In this document: piece after piece, positions 12,761 to 50,004 of the stretch
Numbering within the stretch: position 1 is the stretch's first letter
Layout of the letters: each line of letters opens with the position of its first letter
NCBI GenBank assembly: GCA_964542445.1
Contig: CAZITY010000002.1
Location: 30,340 to 87,066, forward strand
Source: an uncultured Halobacteriales archaeon
GTDB lineage: Archaea > Halobacteriota > Halobacteria > Halobacteriales > Hikarchaeaceae
Length of the DNA stretch: 56,727 bases
Direction: 5' to 3'
Translations under genes and position numbers: made by a program
Notes under the pieces: model-generated
What the model saw: the letters and a program-made list of their open reading frames with translations, nothing else
Databases searched by the model: none
Told to the model about the DNA's origin: nothing

Positions 12761-13273
12761 CTACATAACGAATTTTCTGAACGGCTCCCCATCCAACCCA
12801 CACAACCGGCCCCGAACTTGCGACCCATGCTTTTCTATAATCCCATACGCCGCCCGAAACTGCCTTGGTACCGCATAACTCCCTGGATTAAACAACCACA
12901 CCTCATCTGTATCAATAATCTGTGGACTATGCGAATGTCCAAACACCACAACATCAGCGTCAACTTCTCGTCCTAACATCTCCAACCCAGTGTGCGAATG
13001 GTTATTCCCATGCACCATCACTAATTTCAATCCAAGTTCAGTTACCGTCACTTGTGCTGGCACCCGGTCACAGACTTCTTTACTATCATTATTCCCATGA
13101 ACCGCGGTAAATTCATGGGACAGTTCCTCGAATTCATCCAAAACAGACTCCGTTAAAAAATCACCCGTATGTAACACCATATCTGCTTGCTTAACATCGG
13201 CTAACACTTCGCCCTCGAGGTTCGCAGAGGACGTTCCATGCGTATCACCAACAACGACCAACACACTTTCCAC
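12761..13273 (-). CDS. Metallophosphoesterase, YfcE/MJ0936 family
   Basis: GDTHG, HTGD, VHGNND, HG, FGHSH and NPGS motifs. Confidence 0.92.
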   Translation of the reverse strand: MESVLVVVGDTHGTSSANLEGEVLADVKQADMVLHTGDFLTESVLDEFEELSHEFTAVHGNNDSKEVCDRVPAQVTVTELGLKLVMVHGNNHSHTGLEMLGREVDADVVVFGHSHSPQIIDTDEVWLFNPGSYAVPRQFRAAYGIIEKHGSQVRGRLCGLDGEPFRKFVM

Positions 13274-13387
13274 AATCTCTCTACCTAGTTGTTAGTCCAT
13301 CGATATCCACCCGACTTCACTCGTCTAGCCACAAACCTACTCCCTAACAACCGTTTGATTACCATCAATCGATCCCTCGACCCTCCG

Positions 13388-13894
13388 TTACACTGGCAGC
13401 GATATGGCTCGAATCTGCTCCCCGTACCTCCCATCCCATAACCAGATTTCATTCACAGTCCACGAAATCGGATCAACATCTCGCTGCAATAACGCTACCG
13501 CCGCCTCTTCCGTTCCGCCTCGAGCAATCGTAATATGCGGCACATACGACGCTCCTTCGAGTTCAGGAACCGCCCCAAATGTATCTGTCAACGCCAAATG
13601 CACTTTTTCTAACCCCGCACTTTCTACTTCCAAATACACCACCGGTGCACTCCCCGACACAGGTTCGCTGAACATCCCGATTCCAGTAACCTGCACGCCA
13701 AACGGTTGCGTCCCACGAAGCGCCATTCGTACCTCAGTTTCAACTGCATCGATACTCCCAGTCACATCCTGTTCAAACCGTTTGCACACCAAGGTATGCC
13801 AGTCGCGTACCTGGTCGAATACCATTAACTCCGGATGTAACTCCGATATCACGCGTTTTACACCACCTCCAATTGGGACATTAACACTTAGCAA
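13388..13894 (-). CDS. 2H phosphoesterase (2'-5' RNA ligase-like) family protein
   Basis: SVNVP near the start, HTLVCK (variant first motif) and YVPHITIAR. Start is uncertain; TTG at 13894 proposed. Confidence 0.8.
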   Translation of the reverse strand: MLSVNVPIGGGVKRVISELHPELMVFDQVRDWHTLVCKRFEQDVTGSIDAVETEVRMALRGTQPFGVQVTGIGMFSEPVSGSAPVVYLEVESAGLEKVHLALTDTFGAVPELEGASYVPHITIARGGTEEAAVALLQRDVDPISWTVNEIWLWDGRYGEQIRAISLPV

Positions 13895-14008
13895 TACGCT
13901 AAACCACTCTATCAAGGTGGATAACAACACCGCTTATCATCCTAAACCAACATCATATAACCCACGCCTCATCTCATCCCCACCTACTGGCTAACTCTCC
14001 TATCCTTC

Positions 14009-14024
14009 CGAAAGGATTTAATAA
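14009..14024 (+). promoter_or_regulatory. BRE/TATA promoter (CGAAAGGA-TTTAATAA) driving the arg leader
   Basis: TATA-like element 23-30 bp upstream of ATG 14047 with a purine-rich BRE, the geometry of a leaderless haloarchaeal transcript. Confidence 0.6.
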
Positions 14025-14046
14025 ACCTCACGGCAAGAACTTAGCA

Positions 14047-14136
14047 ATGAACCGGGCCATTCCGTTAGAGACATTATCATACCGTCTCACTGCGCCCGGT
14101 ATTTTTTCCCGACGAGACCGACCGGGGCTCCATTAG
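14047..14136 (+). other. Candidate arginine leader peptide (uORF, 29 aa) with alternative hairpins
   Basis: MNRAIPLETLSYRLTAPGIFSRRDRPGLH*; CGA CGA GAC CGA near the end; complementary segments described under findings. Confidence 0.5.
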
Positions 14137-14283
14137 CCCCGCCTCCACCTCTTCAACAACTACTGACACCCTCTCGTTTGATACAACCGTATTCGCAATT
14201 CCGCCCCGATAGCCATCGCCCTATAATTTCATTCATTTGATAATACCGTGAGACTTAATTACTAATCTAGTTTTGTCACTGGT

Positions 14284-15507
14284 ATGAGCCGTGTTGCACT
14301 TGCTTTCTCCGGGGGACTCGACACCACCGTCTGCGTCCCGATACTCGAAGAAGAATACGACTACGACGAAGTAATCGGCGTCACCGTCGATGTCGGCCAA
14401 CCCGAAGAAGAATTTCACGAAGCCAAAGAAACCGCAAACGCACTCGACCTCGAACACTACATCGTTGACGAACTCGACACATTCGCTAATCTCTGTCTCA
14501 CGGCCGTCCAAGCCAACGCTACCTACCAAGGCTACCCCCTCGGGACTGCCCTAGCCCGTCCCGTTATCGCCAACGCCATCATCGACATCGCCGAAGAACA
14601 CAACTGTGACGCCCTCGCCCACGGTTGTACCGGCAAAGGAAACGACCAACTCCGCTTCGAAGCTGTTTGGCGCGAAACGGATTTCGACGTTATCGCCCCA
14701 ATCCGCGAACTCGGCTTAACTAGAGAATGGGAACTCGAATTTGCAACCGAACGTAACCTCCCGGTCGAAGGCGGGAATGAAGGCGCATGGAGCATTGATA
14801 CAAACCTCTGGAGCCGCTCAATCGAAGGCGACGACCTCGAAGACCCCGCCTACATCCCGACCGATGACATCTACTCTTGGACCACCGACCCCACGAGTGA
14901 CACGACAGAACTTACGATCACGTTCGACAACGGTATTCCTACCGCCATCGACGGCGACCAACTCGACCCCGTGGCACTTATCGAATACCTAAACGAACTA
15001 GCTGGGTCCTATGGAGTCGGCCGATCAGATCTGATGGAAGACAGGATGCTCGGATTAAAAGTCCGCGAAAACTACGAACACCCAGCCGCGACAACCCTCC
15101 TCGCCGCACACGAGGCGCTCGAGGGCCTCGTCCTCACGAAAGAAGAACGGTCCTTCAAAACACACGTCGACAATACATGGGCAGAAAAAGCCTACGAAGG
15201 ACTGCTCGCTGCTCCACTCGTCTCCGCCTTAGAGGGATTTATCACCACGACCCAACATCGCGTCACCGGCACTGTCACCATCCGACTCGAAGGCGGCCAA
15301 GCACGCCCTGTCGGCCGGGACAGCGACTACGCTGTCTACTCAGAAGCAGCCGCGTCATTCAACACCGAAGACGTAATCGGCGGTATCACTCAAGCCGACG
15401 CCACCGGCGTCGCCAAATACCACGGGTTCCAAGAACGTCTCGCGAATCGCGCGATTAACACCGTTGAATCTGACCTCGAAGCGCTCACAGACGGTGGAAA
15501 CGAATAA
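14284..15507 (+). CDS. argG: Argininosuccinate synthase
   Basis: LAFSGGLDT, HGCTGKGNDQLRF, SIDTNLW.RSIE and GLK.RE.YEHP. Confidence 0.98.
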   Translation: MSRVALAFSGGLDTTVCVPILEEEYDYDEVIGVTVDVGQPEEEFHEAKETANALDLEHYIVDELDTFANLCLTAVQANATYQGYPLGTALARPVIANAIIDIAEEHNCDALAHGCTGKGNDQLRFEAVWRETDFDVIAPIRELGLTREWELEFATERNLPVEGGNEGAWSIDTNLWSRSIEGDDLEDPAYIPTDDIYSWTTDPTSDTTELTITFDNGIPTAIDGDQLDPVALIEYLNELAGSYGVGRSDLMEDRMLGLKVRENYEHPAATTLLAAHEALEGLVLTKEERSFKTHVDNTWAEKAYEGLLAAPLVSALEGFITTTQHRVTGTVTIRLEGGQARPVGRDSDYAVYSEAAASFNTEDVIGGITQADATGVAKYHGFQERLANRAINTVESDLEALTDGGNE

Positions 15508-46064: not shown

Positions 46065-47354
46065 CTAACGAGCCCGATCAACTAGCGCCTCTGCCTGCGC
46101 GACGGCCGATGCCACAACTTCCGACTCGTTCAGCGAAAGCACTTCCCGATCTCGCATCAACACAGACCCATCACAAACGGTATGACGGACATCACCGCCA
46201 TTCACTGCATACGCGATATTACTAACCAAATCATGTAACGGCATCAAATGCGGTTTCTCAACATCAACAACAATCAAATCAGCTTTCTTTCCCTCCGCAA
46301 TAACACCCGCATCAAACCCAAGCAACTGCGCCCCACATTTCGTCCCCATTTCACTCACTACCTCGGCTGAAACCGCACTCGCATCATCCGCCGCTATCTT
46401 CCCACTCATCGCTGCATCCCGAATCTCACCAAACATATCCAAATCATTATTCGACGCCGCCCCATCCGTCCCAATCCCCACCGTCACACCTGCATCCCAC
46501 AATTCCTGTACCGGTGCCAACCCACTCGCCAATTTCATATTCGACGCCGGACAGTGCACCACCGACGCCCCATTTGACGCCAGCAACTCAATTTCTTCCC
46601 GACTTAAATGCACCCCGTGCGCCACGAAATCACGCTCACGCAATATCCCCAGTTCGTCAGCATACGCCAACGGACGCATCTCGTGTTCCTCCACCACGGG
46701 CGAGACTTGATGCGCAATAGTCTCGTTCGCATGATAATGCACTGGCAACCCAGTATCCCGCGCAACACTCACAATCTCCCGCAAATCAGTATCACGAACC
46801 GTTGCCAAACTATGTGGCATCAACGCCGTATGAATCCGCCCATCACCTGACCCCGCATACGCCTTCGCGAACTCCACCCCTGTCTCCACATCCTCTTGTG
46901 CCGCCTCATCATCCTTCCCCACCGTCACAATCCCATGCCCGAGTACCGCCCGCAACCCAGCTTCCTCGACTACCTCGACAACTTCATCCATAAAAAAGTA
47001 CATATCAGCCAACGCCGTTGTCCCTGACTTAATCATCTCGAGCACCCCCAACGCAGCTCCCGCCCGGACATCCCCCGCAGTCAACTGCGCCTCAACCGGC
47101 CAGATGTCTTCTTCCAACCACGCATTCAACGGTTTATCATCCGCATACCCACGAAACAACGTCATCGCTGCATGCGTATGCGCATTCACCAACCCCGGCA
47201 TCACCAATCCACCCGCCGCATCTAACACCTCATCACCATCACCCTCCCCTACCTCCAGTATTTCCCCTGACTCCTCATCCACAAGCAGATCCGCCTCACG
47301 AACCGTCAAATCCGGTAACAACACCCGACCCCCGGTTATCCCCAACGTACCCAT
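46065..47354 (-). CDS. mtaD: 5'-methylthioadenosine/SAH (or 5'-deoxyadenosine) deaminase, amidohydrolase family
   Basis: PGLVNAHTH, H.HANE, AHGVH, HCPASNMKLASG and GTDGAASNN; adjacent to ahcY. Confidence 0.85.
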   Translation of the reverse strand: MGTLGITGGRVLLPDLTVREADLLVDEESGEILEVGEGDGDEVLDAAGGLVMPGLVNAHTHAAMTLFRGYADDKPLNAWLEEDIWPVEAQLTAGDVRAGAALGVLEMIKSGTTALADMYFFMDEVVEVVEEAGLRAVLGHGIVTVGKDDEAAQEDVETGVEFAKAYAGSGDGRIHTALMPHSLATVRDTDLREIVSVARDTGLPVHYHANETIAHQVSPVVEEHEMRPLAYADELGILRERDFVAHGVHLSREEIELLASNGASVVHCPASNMKLASGLAPVQELWDAGVTVGIGTDGAASNNDLDMFGEIRDAAMSGKIAADDASAVSAEVVSEMGTKCGAQLLGFDAGVIAEGKKADLIVVDVEKPHLMPLHDLVSNIAYAVNGGDVRHTVCDGSVLMRDREVLSLNESEVVASAVAQAEALVDRAR

Positions 47355-47436
47355 ACCTAGCCATATACACCCAACACTCTCAACCTGCCGATCAAGCTTC
47401 GAAAGACAGTTCCTTCACCCCATCGACTCTTAACTA

Positions 47437-48285
47437 ATGAGAATCGCGGTTCCGAACAAAGGCCGGCTTCACGACCCCACTCGCACACTCCTTGAACGAG
47501 CTGGGCTCCACATCGAAAATGGAGCCGAACGGAAACTCTACGCCAATACCATCGACCCAGATGTCACTATCCTCTATGTCAGAACCAACGATATCCCTCA
47601 ATACCTATCCGATGGCGCCGCCGACCTCGGCATCACTGGACTCGATCAAATCCGAGAAGCTGAAGTTCCAAACGTCGTCCCATTGCTCGATCTAGACTAC
47701 GGTCACTGCCGCCTCGTCCTCGCCGCCCCAGAAACCAGTGACATCACCACTGTGAACGATCTAACCGGAAAAACCGTCGCGACTGAATTCCCAAACATCG
47801 CCCGCGCGTACTTCGACGAACAAGGAATCACTCCCGATATCGTCGTAGTCAGCGGCGCAACAGAACTCACCCCACACGTCGACATGGCCGACGCAATCAT
47901 CGACATCACAAGTACCGGCACCACCCTGACCGTCAACCGACTCACGGTCATCGATGACGTTCTCGAAAGTTCCGTCCAATTGTTCGCTCGCGACGATATC
48001 GCTGACAACAAGAAAACCCGCCAAATCACTACCGCCCTCCAATCAGTACTAGCCGCGGAAGGCAAACGCTACCTTATGATGAATGCCCCTGCCGACAACT
48101 TAGACGCAATCAAGGACGTCCTTCCAGGGCTAGGCGGCCCCACCGTTATGGACATCGCTGGCGACAACAAAGTAGCGATTCATGTTGTTGTTGACGAACG
48201 AGATGTCTTCGAAGCCATCAATAACGTCAAAGACCACGGTGCAAGCGGCATTCTCGTTACAGAAATCGAACGAATGATCGAGTAA
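47437..48285 (+). CDS. hisG: ATP phosphoribosyltransferase (long form)
   Basis: [34 protein letters not shown] and a C-terminal regulatory domain. Confidence 0.97.
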
Positions 48286-48348
48286 CTAGCCAACCCACCC
48301 AATCAATTTACTGATTCTATCATTAACCCGTACTTCGTCCCGAAAATC

Positions 48349-48909
48349 CTAATCGAGGAGATCCAACTCTTCAAGCCGTGACACAATCCGATCAACTGCA
48401 TGTTCCGCATCAACCGGTTGCTTCCCCCCCGTAATAACTAGCTTTCCCGAACCAAACAACAACGCAACCACATTCGGATCCTCTAACCGATACACCAACC
48501 CCGGAAACTGCTCAGGTTCATACTCAATGTTCTCTAATCCTAACCCAATAGCAATCGCATTCAAATTCAACTTCCGACCCAAATCCGCTGACGTAACAAT
48601 ATTCTGAACCACAATCTCCGGATTTTCATCAACTTGAATATCCAACTCGCGCAATTTATCGAATACAATCTCAAGGCTTTCATGCACATCATCTGTGCTT
48701 TTCGCCCCCGTACACACAATTTTACCAGATCGAAAAATAAGAGCCGCTGATTTAGGGTTTTGTGTTCGATAAACCAGCCCTGGGAACTGTTCAGGATCAT
48801 AATCAGCGCCTTCTAAATCCATCGCAACGCTTTGTAAATCAAGTTCCTGGCCGATCCCCGTAGAAGCAACAACATTTTCAATATTAATAGTATCCTTGGG
48901 ATCCGTCAT
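48349..48909 (-). CDS. tbp: TATA-box-binding protein
   Basis: Two repeats of NVVAS/NIVTS...Y.PEQFPGLVYR...LIF.SGK.V.TG. Confidence 0.98.
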   Translation of the reverse strand: MTDPKDTINIENVVASTGIGQELDLQSVAMDLEGADYDPEQFPGLVYRTQNPKSAALIFRSGKIVCTGAKSTDDVHESLEIVFDKLRELDIQVDENPEIVVQNIVTSADLGRKLNLNAIAIGLGLENIEYEPEQFPGLVYRLEDPNVVALLFGSGKLVITGGKQPVDAEHAVDRIVSRLEELDLLD

Positions 48910-48914
48910 CGTTC

Positions 48915-48944
48915 GCCTTAAAAAATGTATTTAAGGCCTATAAA
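48915..48944 (-). promoter_or_regulatory. tbp promoter: TTTATA box plus the 8-bp inverted repeat GCCTTAAA-N7-TTTAAGGC
   Basis: Inverted repeat at 48915-48922 and 48930-48937; TATA (minus strand) at 48939-48944; ATG at 48909. Confidence 0.5.
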
Positions 48945-49026
48945 GATTGGTAGTACGGATTAACCCCCTAAAATCACCGCGTCGGAATCCGCTATTCCTA
49001 TTTTCTTCACTCTCTGATTACGACGT

Positions 49027-50004
49027 GTGCACGTCCTCGAACTCGGTGGTCAGGACGATACCTACGCCGCAGCTGAAGCAGCGACCGCAGCGACCGATAT
49101 CTCTGTTATCGCCCCCGGACTCGCGCTCGCCGACTCTATTTCCCCAAATCGAATCCAGGGTCTGGCGTACACCCACCGTGCAAGTGAAGTACTCGGCGTC
49201 GTTACCCCGGAATTAGCACAAATAATACAATTAGTGACCGCTAGGAATATTGATCGTACCGGATCGATGGCGGTTCGCGCAAGGAATATTCGAGGGAAGG
49301 CGTCAATAAGTACCAAGCGCATCGAACGTGAAATTGGTTCGATATTAACGAACAAAGGGTTCGCAATCGATCTTGAGAACCCCACCCATGAGCTTCGAGT
49401 TCTCATCGGAGCCGAGATCTGTGTAATTGGATGGTTTGTCACCGCCAGCATCAGAGATTTTGGTTCCAGAGTCCCGACCAAACGACCATTCTTCCAACCC
49501 GGAACACTTCACCCGCTAGAAGCGCGTTCCATCGTGAATCTTGCCCACGCTCAACCTAACCGATTGATATTCGATCCAATGTGTGGGACAGGAGGGTTTC
49601 TTATCGAAGCCGGCCTGCTTGGCGCGAAAACCATTGGAATGGATTCACAATACAAAATGGTCGCCGGAACTAAACGGAACTTGGAGCACTATCTAACAGA
49701 CACTGGCTATCTGTTCCAAGGCGACGTCTCTCAAATTCCTGTCTGCGCCTCAGTTGATGCAATAGTGGTAGACCTACCCTATGGCAGGCAGTCTAAAATA
49801 TCTGGAAAATCCACCGACAATCTCTTGCATCGCCTGCTAACCGAAAGCCGAGCCGTTACAACCAGAATGATTTTGGTGAATAACACACCGGTACAGGCCA
49901 CCGCTACCGATTATAACTGGAACGTACATCACTGTTTTTCCAGACCGGTTCACCAATCACTCACCCGGTACGTCCACGTTTTAGGGGCTCAAGGCGAGTA
50001 CTGA
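49027..50004 (+). CDS. trmG10: tRNA (guanine-10) N2-dimethyltransferase (THUMP + SAM MTase)
   Basis: THUMP-like region, RPFFQPG, DPMCGTGG, DLPYGR and VH.SLTR. Confidence 0.85.
   Translation: MHVLELGGQDDTYAAAEAATAATDISVIAPGLALADSISPNRIQGLAYTHRASEVLGVVTPELAQIIQLVTARNIDRTGSMAVRARNIRGKASISTKRIEREIGSILTNKGFAIDLENPTHELRVLIGAEICVIGWFVTASIRDFGSRVPTKRPFFQPGTLHPLEARSIVNLAHAQPNRLIFDPMCGTGGFLIEAGLLGAKTIGMDSQYKMVAGTKRNLEHYLTDTGYLFQGDVSQIPVCASVDAIVVDLPYGRQSKISGKSTDNLLHRLLTESRAVTTRMILVNNTPVQATATDYNWNVHHCFSRPVHQSLTRYVHVLGAQGEY

Follow-up and report, generated by a model that had tools for sequence, protein, structure and literature searches.

A conserved leaderless open reading frame ending in CGA arginine codons upstream of argG in haloarchaea, a candidate ribosome-mediated arginine sensor

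Leader-peptide attenuation, a textbook mechanism in bacteria, relies on the coupling of transcription to translation; the transcription attenuators of this type include trpL, hisL, leuL, thrL, pheL and the ilv leaders. We know of no arginine leader peptide in this classic set, and of no established example of leader-peptide attenuation in Archaea. The fungal AAP, encoded by the upstream open reading frame (uORF) of arg-2/CPA1, senses free arginine via a conserved exit-tunnel peptide and blocks scanning ribosomes, and contains no run of Arg codons. In the TnaC type of control, a stalled ribosome masks the entry site of a termination factor; TnaC responds to a free amino acid and turns on a catabolic operon. 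Here, we describe a short leaderless open reading frame (ORF), ending in a run of Arg codons and flanked by hairpins, that lies upstream of argG (argininosuccinate synthase) in a 56,727-nucleotide stretch of DNA from an uncultured Halobacteriales archaeon (contig CAZITY010000002.1, positions 30,340 to 87,066; hereafter the window), and we compare it with its counterparts in other haloarchaea. Leaderless leader peptides have been predicted in the bacterium Deinococcus deserti (de Groot 2014, PMC4007540), in a paper whose available passages also describe the trp attenuation case.

The haloarchaeal leader shares with the bacterial attenuators a short ORF with tandem cognate codons upstream of a biosynthesis operon, hairpins that overlap or abut this ORF, and what is predicted to be a terminated leader RNA accumulating under replete conditions; the window itself has the trp/his-type arrangement of a short ORF with tandem cognate codons upstream of amino-acid biosynthesis genes. 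The leu leader uses CUA codons, and its rarely used synonymous codon recalls the CGA run described here. Unlike the bacterial attenuators, the haloarchaeal leader has an archaeal host and a leaderless start with no Shine-Dalgarno sequence, carries its control codons at the very C-terminus, against the hairpin that holds the stop codon, and gives an RNA whose end is at a T-rich tract ~75-95 nt beyond the stop codon. The gene that would be regulated also has its own, second promoter in half of the haloarchaeal lineages, and no conserved 1:2/2:3/3:4 alternative hairpins were found in the haloarchaeal leaders. The D. deserti leaders, which are likewise predictions, belong to transcripts that begin with the AUG of a short ORF, enriched in cognate residues, upstream of amino-acid or tRNA-synthetase genes; they are bacterial, however, and the available passages of PMC4007540 mention no arginine case. 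With the fungal AAP, the leader shares an upstream ORF that would make an arginine-biosynthesis gene respond to arginine via the translating ribosome, but it conserves codons and not a peptide. As in the tna operon, the stop codon of the haloarchaeal leader adjoins an unstructured, G-poor tract, and U/C-rich tracts flank the putative stall site. As a leader-peptide sensor the unit would belong to a kind known from bacteria; what would be new is its occurrence in another domain of life, its leaderless initiation, a CGA run at the C-terminus that abuts a stop-codon hairpin, and a second promoter in many cases. No archaeal arginine leader or attenuator was found in the open-access literature searched; subscription papers and further supplements may describe one.

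In the window, the leader lies on the plus strand within a 353-nt spacer (13931-14283) between a divergent minus-strand gene and argG (14284-15507, plus strand), an ORF whose product is 70-77% identical to haloarchaeal ArgG. Its promoter, P1, is the B recognition element (BRE)/TATA sequence CGAAAGGATTTAATAA at 14009-14024, composed of the BRE CGAAA and the TATA box TTTAATAA at 14017-24, and is predicted from the sequence to place the transcript start at or a few nt before the ATG at 14047. The ORF (14047-14136) encodes MNRAIPLETLSYRLTAPGIFSRRDRPGLH in 29 codons followed by TAG at 14134-14136, and its ATG stands 237 nt before that of argG. Five of its codons specify arginine (CGG, CGT and three CGA), and the putative control codons are CGA CGA GAC CGA at 14110-14121. 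In the minimum free energy (MFE) structure, a first hairpin, H1 (14051-14100), lies inside the ORF from codon 2 onwards, with the outer stem ACCGGGC 14051-57/GCCCGGT 14094-14100 and the inner stem GAGAC 14068-72/GTCTC 14084-88. It is separated from the Arg run by the T6 tract (14102-14107), the only run of five or more T in the intergenic region. A second hairpin, H2 (14123-14141), has 7 bp (CGGGGCT 14123-29/AGCCCCG 14135-41), the loop CCAUU, and the TAG at 14134-36 in its loop and 3' arm. The original prediction for this DNA had named the BRE/TATA, the ATG, the 29-codon ORF, the Arg cluster, H1, T6 and a second TATA box before argG, and all of them were confirmed at their positions. It had also proposed a hairpin closing over the stop codon; this is present, with seven pairs in the MFE structure (14123-29/14135-41) where six had been given (14124-29/14135-40).

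We scanned one genome per species with the window's ArgG. The matches listed comprised at least 80 loci from many haloarchaeal genera at 70-77% protein identity; the best identity among them was 77%, so that the comparison set consists of other genera, with the window's own genus unsampled. Three of the 80 listed loci (L040, L060 and L080) had no upstream DNA, which left 77 usable loci, and the leader unit was found upstream of argG in 76 of these 77. In the remaining locus, L016, another gene ends 15 nt before argG and the unit is missing. The 76 loci together with the window make up the set of 77 leaders used below, and all counts over this set refer to phylogenetically related, not independent, sequences. 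The unit consists of a BRE/TATA, an ATG at leaderless distance, the 5' hairpin H1, an in-frame Arg-codon run and the GC hairpin H2, which usually holds the stop codon; in the 76 loci its ATG stands 159-323 nt before the argG start, on the same strand. Among the 77 leaders, the A/T 8-mer of the homologous BRE/TATA starts 29-38 nt before the leader ATG and aligns in our alignment A1, and the window belongs to the family, its BRE/TATA lying at leaderless distance from an ATG that shares the frame of a CGA-rich Arg run. Pieces of the window spacer were also matched upstream of argG in other genera by nhmmer and blastn. When a covariance model (R1) built from 75 leaders, with the window and the long leader L010 left out, was run against both strands of the 56.7-kb window, it gave a single match, at 14045-14150(+), with 25.9 bits and an E-value of 0.0012 (rough calibration). 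By these sequence comparisons the unit is far from chance, and the stretch 14009-14240 represents the window's version of a leader that the class Halobacteria has kept before argG.

The ORFs range from 20 to 57 codons, with 15 distinct lengths, and typically end in ...R(P)RRPG[R/L/S]x-stop. Otherwise the peptide shows little conservation, with a mean column identity of 28% and M1 and one Arg as its only invariant residues. No second copy of the leader was found by a crude motif scan of 1.21 Mb, comprising both strands of the window and the loci. Three long alternative-frame ORFs inside genes, which that scan returned, were dismissed. The longest leader ORF, of 57 codons, is that of Halocatena pleomorpha (L010:2714-2884), where ~90 nt of extra hairpin-forming sequence is inserted, in frame, between H1 and the Arg run. 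The Halodesulfurarchaeum metagenome-assembled genome L068 carries three tandem ~21-nt repeats (CGACCACCACACGACCACCATT-like) at ~2850-2985, between the leader ORF and argG, which stretch the leader-argG distance there to 323 nt.

Codon choice within the run was strongly biased. Over the 77 leaders, 218 of the 250 Arg codons of the runs are CGA and 27 are CGG. In the last ten codons CGA accounts for 232 of 307 Arg codons; the accompanying argG genes use it for 33 of 1357, and the leader heads for 15 of 158. Runs contain 1-7 Arg codons (median 3) and may be interrupted by CCG, CCA, GAC or CAG, and in 70/77 leaders the final codon of the run stops 1-2 nt short of where H2 pairing begins. The TATA-proximal ATG is kept in the CGA frame in 76 of 77 loci despite the 15 ORF lengths. 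Within 30-150 nt upstream of the run, 107 ATG triplets are in the CGA frame and 6 and 9 in the other two, a count that is partly circular, as 77 of the 107 are the chosen starts. A semi-independent test, with a frame-blind automatic choice of TATA and ATG, placed 54 of 63 starts in frame and gave no call at 14 further loci; this test is noisy, the missing calls coming from a wrong A/T 8-mer and some of the nine out-of-frame calls from a mis-set CGAC anchor. Taken together, the sequence comparisons indicate that the leader reading frame is under selection. CGA makes up 2.4% of argG Arg codons in the other loci, whereas the window's genome (~50.6% G+C) uses it for 64 of 283 Arg codons (22.6%) in 15 genes between 8962 and 26304, and yet all three run codons of the window leader are CGA. 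Since CGA is not rare in the window's genes, rarity cannot be the whole reason for the bias.

We next examined the two hairpins. The window RNA 14047-14145 folds at -31.6 kcal/mol (z -2.97; 1/200 shuffles as good), and H1 alone reaches z -3.62, with 0/100 shuffles as good. Across the 77 leaders H1 has a median z of -1.73, with 30 leaders below -2 and 10 for which no shuffle of 100 was as good; it is thermodynamically favoured in many, not all, leaders. H2 is present in 77/77 leaders at -7.2 to -19.3 kcal/mol (-12.8 kcal/mol for the window, by local window), in at least five compensatory stem versions: CGGGCC/GGCCCG, CGGCCC/GGGCCG, GGGGUC/GACCCC, GGGGC/GCCCC and UGGGCC/GGCCCA. On a MAFFT alignment not fitted to structure, with stems defined by hand, the base of H1 together with H2 showed 74.7% standard pairs compared with 69.6 +/- 0.7 in shuffles (0/500 as high), and 69 cells changed on both sides compared with 30.6 +/- 5.6 (0/500); slid controls were 27-52% paired. 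On an independent alignment H1 was 64% paired against 30-45% when slid. RNAalifold on a plain MAFFT alignment of the leaders whose argG has its own promoter (class A, below) recovered only 3 pairs of H2, because H1 was misaligned.

The stop codon lies in the H2 loop or 3' arm in most leaders, and 2-11 nt after H2 in nine (L007, L011, L038, L070, L028, L042, L053, L059 and L072). A switch of the H2 stem from GGGCC to GGCCC is accompanied, in exactly the same leaders, by a change of the peptide residue after Pro (PG to PA); as the residue tracks stem covariation, it is the hairpin and not the peptide that is constrained. The sequence constraints on the unit therefore appear to be RNA structure and codons, not a folded peptide. 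Across the argG upstream regions of the 77 leaders, a leaderless ATG and an Arg-codon cluster are kept and the stems covary. The leader is conserved in position, frame, codon choice and structure, which across genera upholds the leaderless short ORF with an Arg-codon cluster next to hairpins that had been proposed upstream of argG. In the Natronomonas group (L007, L011, L038 and L070) the run joins H2 one base earlier, as CGACGGGCC where others have CGACCGGGCC. The TAG of the H2 loop is out of frame there, and the ORF survives, ending a few nt later at another TAG (RAGRPE-stop or RAGRPD-stop).

The tracts beside the hairpins are also biased in composition. Pyrimidines make up 68% of the 15 nt that precede the run, where 43/77 leaders show a TYTY/TTT motif and 11/77 show TTT. 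The T6 of the window looks like an extreme form of this conserved U/C-rich tract and is a possible pause or termination-factor site; per kb, the window has ~5-fold fewer T6+ runs in its sense coding DNA than in its intergenic DNA. Directly after H2 the window has a G-free C/U/A tract (14142-14164, plus strand); over the 15 nt that follow H2, G makes up a fraction of 0.00-0.06 in both promoter classes described below, compared with 0.31 in the ORF plus H2. In a T-profile, the first T-stretch tends to fall 20-35 nt after H2. By eye, a recurring (T)TTC-AAC(G) word (GATTTCAACGA, GCTTTCAACGA, GTTCGTTCAAC) was seen ~30-45 nt after H2 in both classes, for example in L033, L044, L009, L013, L036 and at 14175-14190 of the window. 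This word resembles the T-stretch-plus-C termination motif reported for Haloferax volcanii.

In Hfx. volcanii, where argG is HVO_0049 (CHR 48274-49491, minus strand), the orthologue lies 215 nt upstream of argG, encodes MATRSTCATFAPLRAAAVRPRRRAL before its stop codon, and has the same run/H2 design. It is already catalogued, without interpretation, in three supplementary tables. Harringtonine ribosome profiling lists it as smORF361, with initiation-site support (Gelsinger 2020, PMC7261190, supplement), and a second profiling study gives it footprints of 690/178/458 reads per kilobase per million (rpkm) (Hadjeras 2023, PMC10117724, supplement). In the latter the leader RNA stands at 256/308/474 rpkm, the upstream HVO_0050 at 8/84/28 and argG at 82/722/598; a level well above that of HVO_0050 implies that the unit has an active promoter of its own. 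In the third supplement, a 3' end (transcription termination site 49555(-)) overlaps the annotated 'HVO_0049s.mature_transcript' at 49544-49711 (Berkemer 2020, PMC7237163), a small RNA (sRNA) that, as annotated, starts 5 nt before the leader ATG. The mapped 3' end falls ~75 nt downstream of the uORF stop, next to a T-rich tract that shortly precedes the argG TATA. The leaderless short ORF thus gains support from outside the window through the transcript data, footprints and initiation-site call in these supplements. A strong argG transcription start site (TSS) has been mapped at 49493, giving a 2-nt leader (Babski 2016, PMC4983044, supplement), and one transcript, 46768-49871, spans HVO_0050, the leader, argG and argH (Laass 2019, PMC6490895, supplement), so some read-through exists. 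The available main-text passages of Gelsinger 2020 mention neither arginine nor HVO_0049, those of Berkemer 2020, Gelsinger 2020 and Hadjeras 2023 draw no link between the orthologue and arginine, argG or attenuation, and 'HVO_0049s' is named in no main text of the open-access literature searched.

The leaders fall into two layouts. In class A (39 leaders, including the window, Haloferax, Haloplanus, Salinigranum, Natrialba and relatives, Haladaptatus and others), a separate A/T-rich promoter for argG lies 18-38 nt ahead of the gene's ATG. In the window this promoter, P2, is the TATA box TTAATTAC at 14255-62 (plus strand), 22-29 nt before the argG ATG at 14284 and thus at leaderless distance. 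The original prediction had cautioned that argG has its own promoter, and that the upstream unit could be an sRNA. Both cautions were well placed: a leaderless promoter occurs in the window and in 38 other loci, the Hfx. volcanii argG has the strong TSS 2 nt before its ATG, and the Hfx. volcanii orthologue is listed as a discrete sRNA in the supplement cited above. Before the argG TATA, class A leaders carry a conserved block in which a small hairpin or palindrome is followed by TTATTTC/TAATTTTC and this by an A-rich stretch (window 14207-14254; A1 columns ~245-300). By homology, the leader RNA of the window is predicted to end at 14207-14239 (plus strand), where a hairpin (CGAT-AGCC-ATCG, 14207-18) is followed by the T-rich tract TATAATTTCATTCATTTG (14222-39). 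This region aligns with the class A hairpin/T-rich block holding the mapped Hfx. volcanii 3' end, and its T-rich tract comes after the leader ORF and before argG, with argG's own promoter next. Judged by its sequence, the class A block may be both a leader terminator and a regulator site for the argG promoter. The palindromes vary, with GGTTAGAGTGCACTCTAACC in L077, TGCCTATAGGCA in L046 and CGTCTATAGACG in L037.

In class B (38 leaders, including Natronomonas, Halorussus, Halovenus, Halococcus, Salarchaeum and others), no A/T-rich promoter was seen before argG, and a CA-rich leader with another hairpin continues up to the gene. Without an argG promoter, the leader ORF of this class is a true upstream ORF of the argG mRNA. 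Complementarity between the Arg run and downstream sequence was commoner than expected by chance, reaching p<=0.05 in 13/38 class B leaders (median z -1.2), and in several cases the run-complementary segment is trailed by a short U-stretch; a first, noisier version of this test had given 15/77 overall. A hairpin-dependent attenuator is plausible in class B on this sequence evidence. Masked folds imitating a stalled or terminating ribosome gave no common nameable downstream rearrangement in the 12 of 38 class B leaders folded. Class B leaders also carry a conserved GC hairpin of the ACCGYCCGG-loop-GGCGGT type ~25-30 nt before the argG ATG (L007 ~2920-2990, L009, L033, L072 and L078), followed by a G-poor CA-rich stretch, CACACAACACA-ATG, with no Shine-Dalgarno-like sequence.

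We consider the unit to be, with a probability of roughly 0.6, an arginine sensor that works through the ribosome and controls the expression of arg genes in cis. This reading is favoured by the fixed place before argG, the Arg-only coding constraint and the bacterial analogues. In archaea, as far as is known, one tRNA-Arg (anticodon UCG) reads CGA, and the dwell time of a ribosome on the run would depend on the supply of this tRNA in charged form. As a ribosome covers ~12-15 nt 3' of its P site, one decoding the run must hold H2 open, and its rear must cover the end of H1 and the U/C-rich tract. With plentiful arginine, the leader ORF would be finished quickly, the ribosome would leave, H2 would reform and the leader RNA would end at the downstream T-rich site. 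With scarce arginine, the ribosome would stall on the CGA run, and more transcripts would continue, or survive, into argG. For the window, this predicts a P1 transcript starting at ~14045-47, a replete end near 14222-39 and, upon limitation, more polymerases crossing P2 into argG. We infer that dwell time responds to arginine supply and alters argG expression.

Candidate output steps are a blocked H2 or long-range helix, masked U/C-rich sites for aCPSF1, and protection from decay; that a stalled ribosome hides U/C-rich RNA from aCPSF1, or protects the mRNA from decay, is speculation. Archaeal aCPSF1 is reported to bind U-tracts (PMC8716108, available passages). According to the available parts of Berkemer 2020 (PMC7237163), transcription in Hfx. 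volcanii is ended by T-stretches and also by hairpins, and in a Hfx. reporter a hairpin alone terminated 59%, and T5C 95%, of transcripts. A more specific proposal, which we put forward tentatively and hold to be rather less than an even bet, is that the unit is the first ribosome-mediated amino-acid attenuator in Archaea and ancestral to the class Halobacteria. Here, the CGA run would gauge arginine, and the stalled ribosome would open the stop-codon hairpin and mask U/C-rich, G-free RNA from the termination or decay machinery, e.g., aCPSF1, deciding between an end before argG and read-through with no toggling of terminator and antiterminator.

The termination mechanism originally proposed, with H1 and T6 as an arginine-controlled terminator, is not upheld. 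The site is 5' of the Arg codons; an RNA polymerase at the T-run has yet to transcribe these codons, so that stalling at them cannot decide termination there, and a run of three or more T occurs at this place in just 11/77 leaders. The mapped Hfx. volcanii 3' end (Berkemer 2020 supplement) lies instead ~75 nt after the uORF stop, and the homologous tract of the window is at 14222-14239. A scan for bacterial-type promoters and terminators, with a tool not covering archaeal signals, detected nothing resembling a terminator in the leader. Class A leaders, the window among them, showed no mutually exclusive terminator and antiterminator hairpins with control codons in the first segment. The window MFE structure does contain a weak candidate partner for the run, the CUCUCGU region at 14172-14178 (plus strand), which pairs with 14111-14117 in a long-range helix enclosing H2; the duplex has -9.2 kcal/mol and p 0.07, and is doubtful in class A.

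Several observations weigh against a sensor acting in cis. In the window's genome the rare-codon argument fails, and a constraint at the nucleotide level could account for the CGA bias. The presence in class A of both an argG promoter and a leader RNA end means that a cis effect is not required. No conserved antiterminator was found: the Arg run paired with downstream sequence at p<=0.05 in 0/39 class A leaders (window p 0.07), as did the G-poor tract with the terminator region (0/39 at p<=0.05, median z +0.52), and the class A hairpins before the T-tract are weak, small and variable (-2 to -14 kcal/mol). The competing pairings originally proposed, 14095-100/14121-26 and 14084-88/14114-18, are indeed complementary in the window, but equivalent pairing of the H1 3' arm with the run or H2 beats shuffles in only 1/77 leaders, with p 0.20 for the window. 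Archaeal termination, as described in the available passages cited above, mostly needs only U-tracts, which leaves little for an RNA switch to act on. In Hfx. volcanii, DeepRibo scores the ORF low (rank 14782, score -3.9; PMC10117724 supplement), and the differential RNA sequencing supplement of Babski 2016 (PMC4983044) lists no TSS at 4969x-4971x and a weak one at 49728, 5 nt after the TATA. The published data on the unit, as far as the available tables and passages go, all come from cells not starved for arginine. Finally, because the sequences are related, our counts overstate the number of independent events.

Some of the same evidence would suit an independent small gene, i.e., a stand-alone sRNA, possibly dual-function with a small ORF, acting in trans or in another role. 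In class A (39/77, including the window) the unit has its own promoter and T-rich end while argG has a separate leaderless promoter, which is strong in Hfx. volcanii; the Hfx. volcanii annotation is that of an sRNA with a mapped 3' end and an RNA level similar to that of argG (supplements cited above), and no conserved antiterminator was found. We nevertheless regard this as unlikely: in 38 loci no separate argG promoter is seen and the unit belongs to the 5' leader of argG, 76/77 loci keep it in synteny with argG, read-through into argG exists (Laass 2019 supplement), neither a second copy nor an obvious target site emerged, and an sRNA acting purely by base pairing would leave the conservation of frame and Arg codons unexplained. 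At first sight the unit might pass for an ordinary intergenic stretch with an ORF and hairpins in it by accident, given that a 29-codon ORF with 5 Arg codons is nothing unusual in a 353-nt spacer and that the fold of the window alone is modest (z -2.97); with the unit in 76/77 loci, and with a model built without the window finding it as a single match in 56.7 kb, chance has a negligible probability.

The peptide or the nucleic acid itself could also be what is read. Nascent-peptide arrest has precedents in the fungal AAP, TnaC and SpeFL, and a C-terminal ...R-R-(R)-P-G-x-stop might arrest the ribosome at or near the stop codon when free arginine is high, lowering argG expression; the arrested ribosome would sit on H2 and the G-free tract. 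The Arg-rich C-terminus does lie no more than a few codons from the stop, and the 15 G-free nt that follow H2 match the mRNA length covered 3' of an A site holding the stop, a geometry that is established knowledge. Yet conservation is at the level of the codon (87% CGA) and not just of the residue, PG becomes PA together with a compensatory hairpin change, nine leaders stop 2-11 nt beyond H2 with differing tails (e.g., RAGRPE-stop, PGLSLPH-stop), and the rest of the peptide is unconserved (28% mean column identity). No conserved arrest peptide is thus apparent, as judged from leader conservation alone, without direct comparison with the AAP, TnaC and SpeFL sequences. In addition, ribosomes arrested at the stop of a leader usually increase expression of the downstream gene in prokaryotes, the opposite of what a biosynthetic gene would need, and we think this account quite improbable. 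Much the same low probability attaches to a reading in which a protein or small ligand binds a structured element, RNA or DNA, at the CGACGAC...CCGGG motif and H2, with translation being incidental. Strong nucleotide-level conservation of CGACGACGACCGGG-loop-CCC, covariation of both hairpins and the retention of CGA in the window's genome, where it is not rare, would fit such an element. It does not account for an ATG at leaderless distance that stays in the CGA frame despite indels and 15 ORF lengths, for Arg codons that persist when the run is interrupted by CCG, CCA, GAC or CAG, or for the initiation-site call and footprints in the Hfx. volcanii supplements; nor did any Rfam family match at E<=10.

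Because the unit occurs in the genetically tractable Hfx. volcanii, the use of the ribosome as an amino-acid sensor by archaea is directly testable with a few point mutations. If the cis-acting arginine sensor is real, it would represent the first cis-regulatory logic for haloarchaeal arginine biosynthesis and a natural reporter of tRNA-Arg charging. The unit also adds a small-ORF/sRNA family missed by genome annotation. An Rfam 15 scan of 13000-15000 on both strands at E<=10 returned only a chance-level miRNA match inside argG, 6 of the 77 leader peptides matched 0 families in each of NCBIfam and Pfam, and all 10 of the 10 leader peptides looked up by exact match in a 15-billion protein collection were absent.

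As regards gene context, argG of the window is the first gene of an argG-argH-lysW-lysX/argX-argC-argB-argD-argE-argF cluster that extends to 23211; lysW and lysX were named by Pfam and the others were read from their translations, with no database assignment. The divergent gene on the other side of the spacer (13388-13930, minus strand) belongs to the 2'-5' RNA ligase/2H phosphoesterase superfamily (Pfam PF13563). Its start is ambiguous, being either the GTG at 13930 or a later codon, and ATCATATAAC at 13952-61 is a TATA-like element on the minus strand, at roughly leaderless distance. In the Haloferax loci and in Hfx. volcanii, the neighbour is instead a gene for a 39-aa hydrophobic protein (HVO_0050) on the leader's strand. 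The best DNA matches to the window spacer came from uncultured lineages (L062, L064 and L034).

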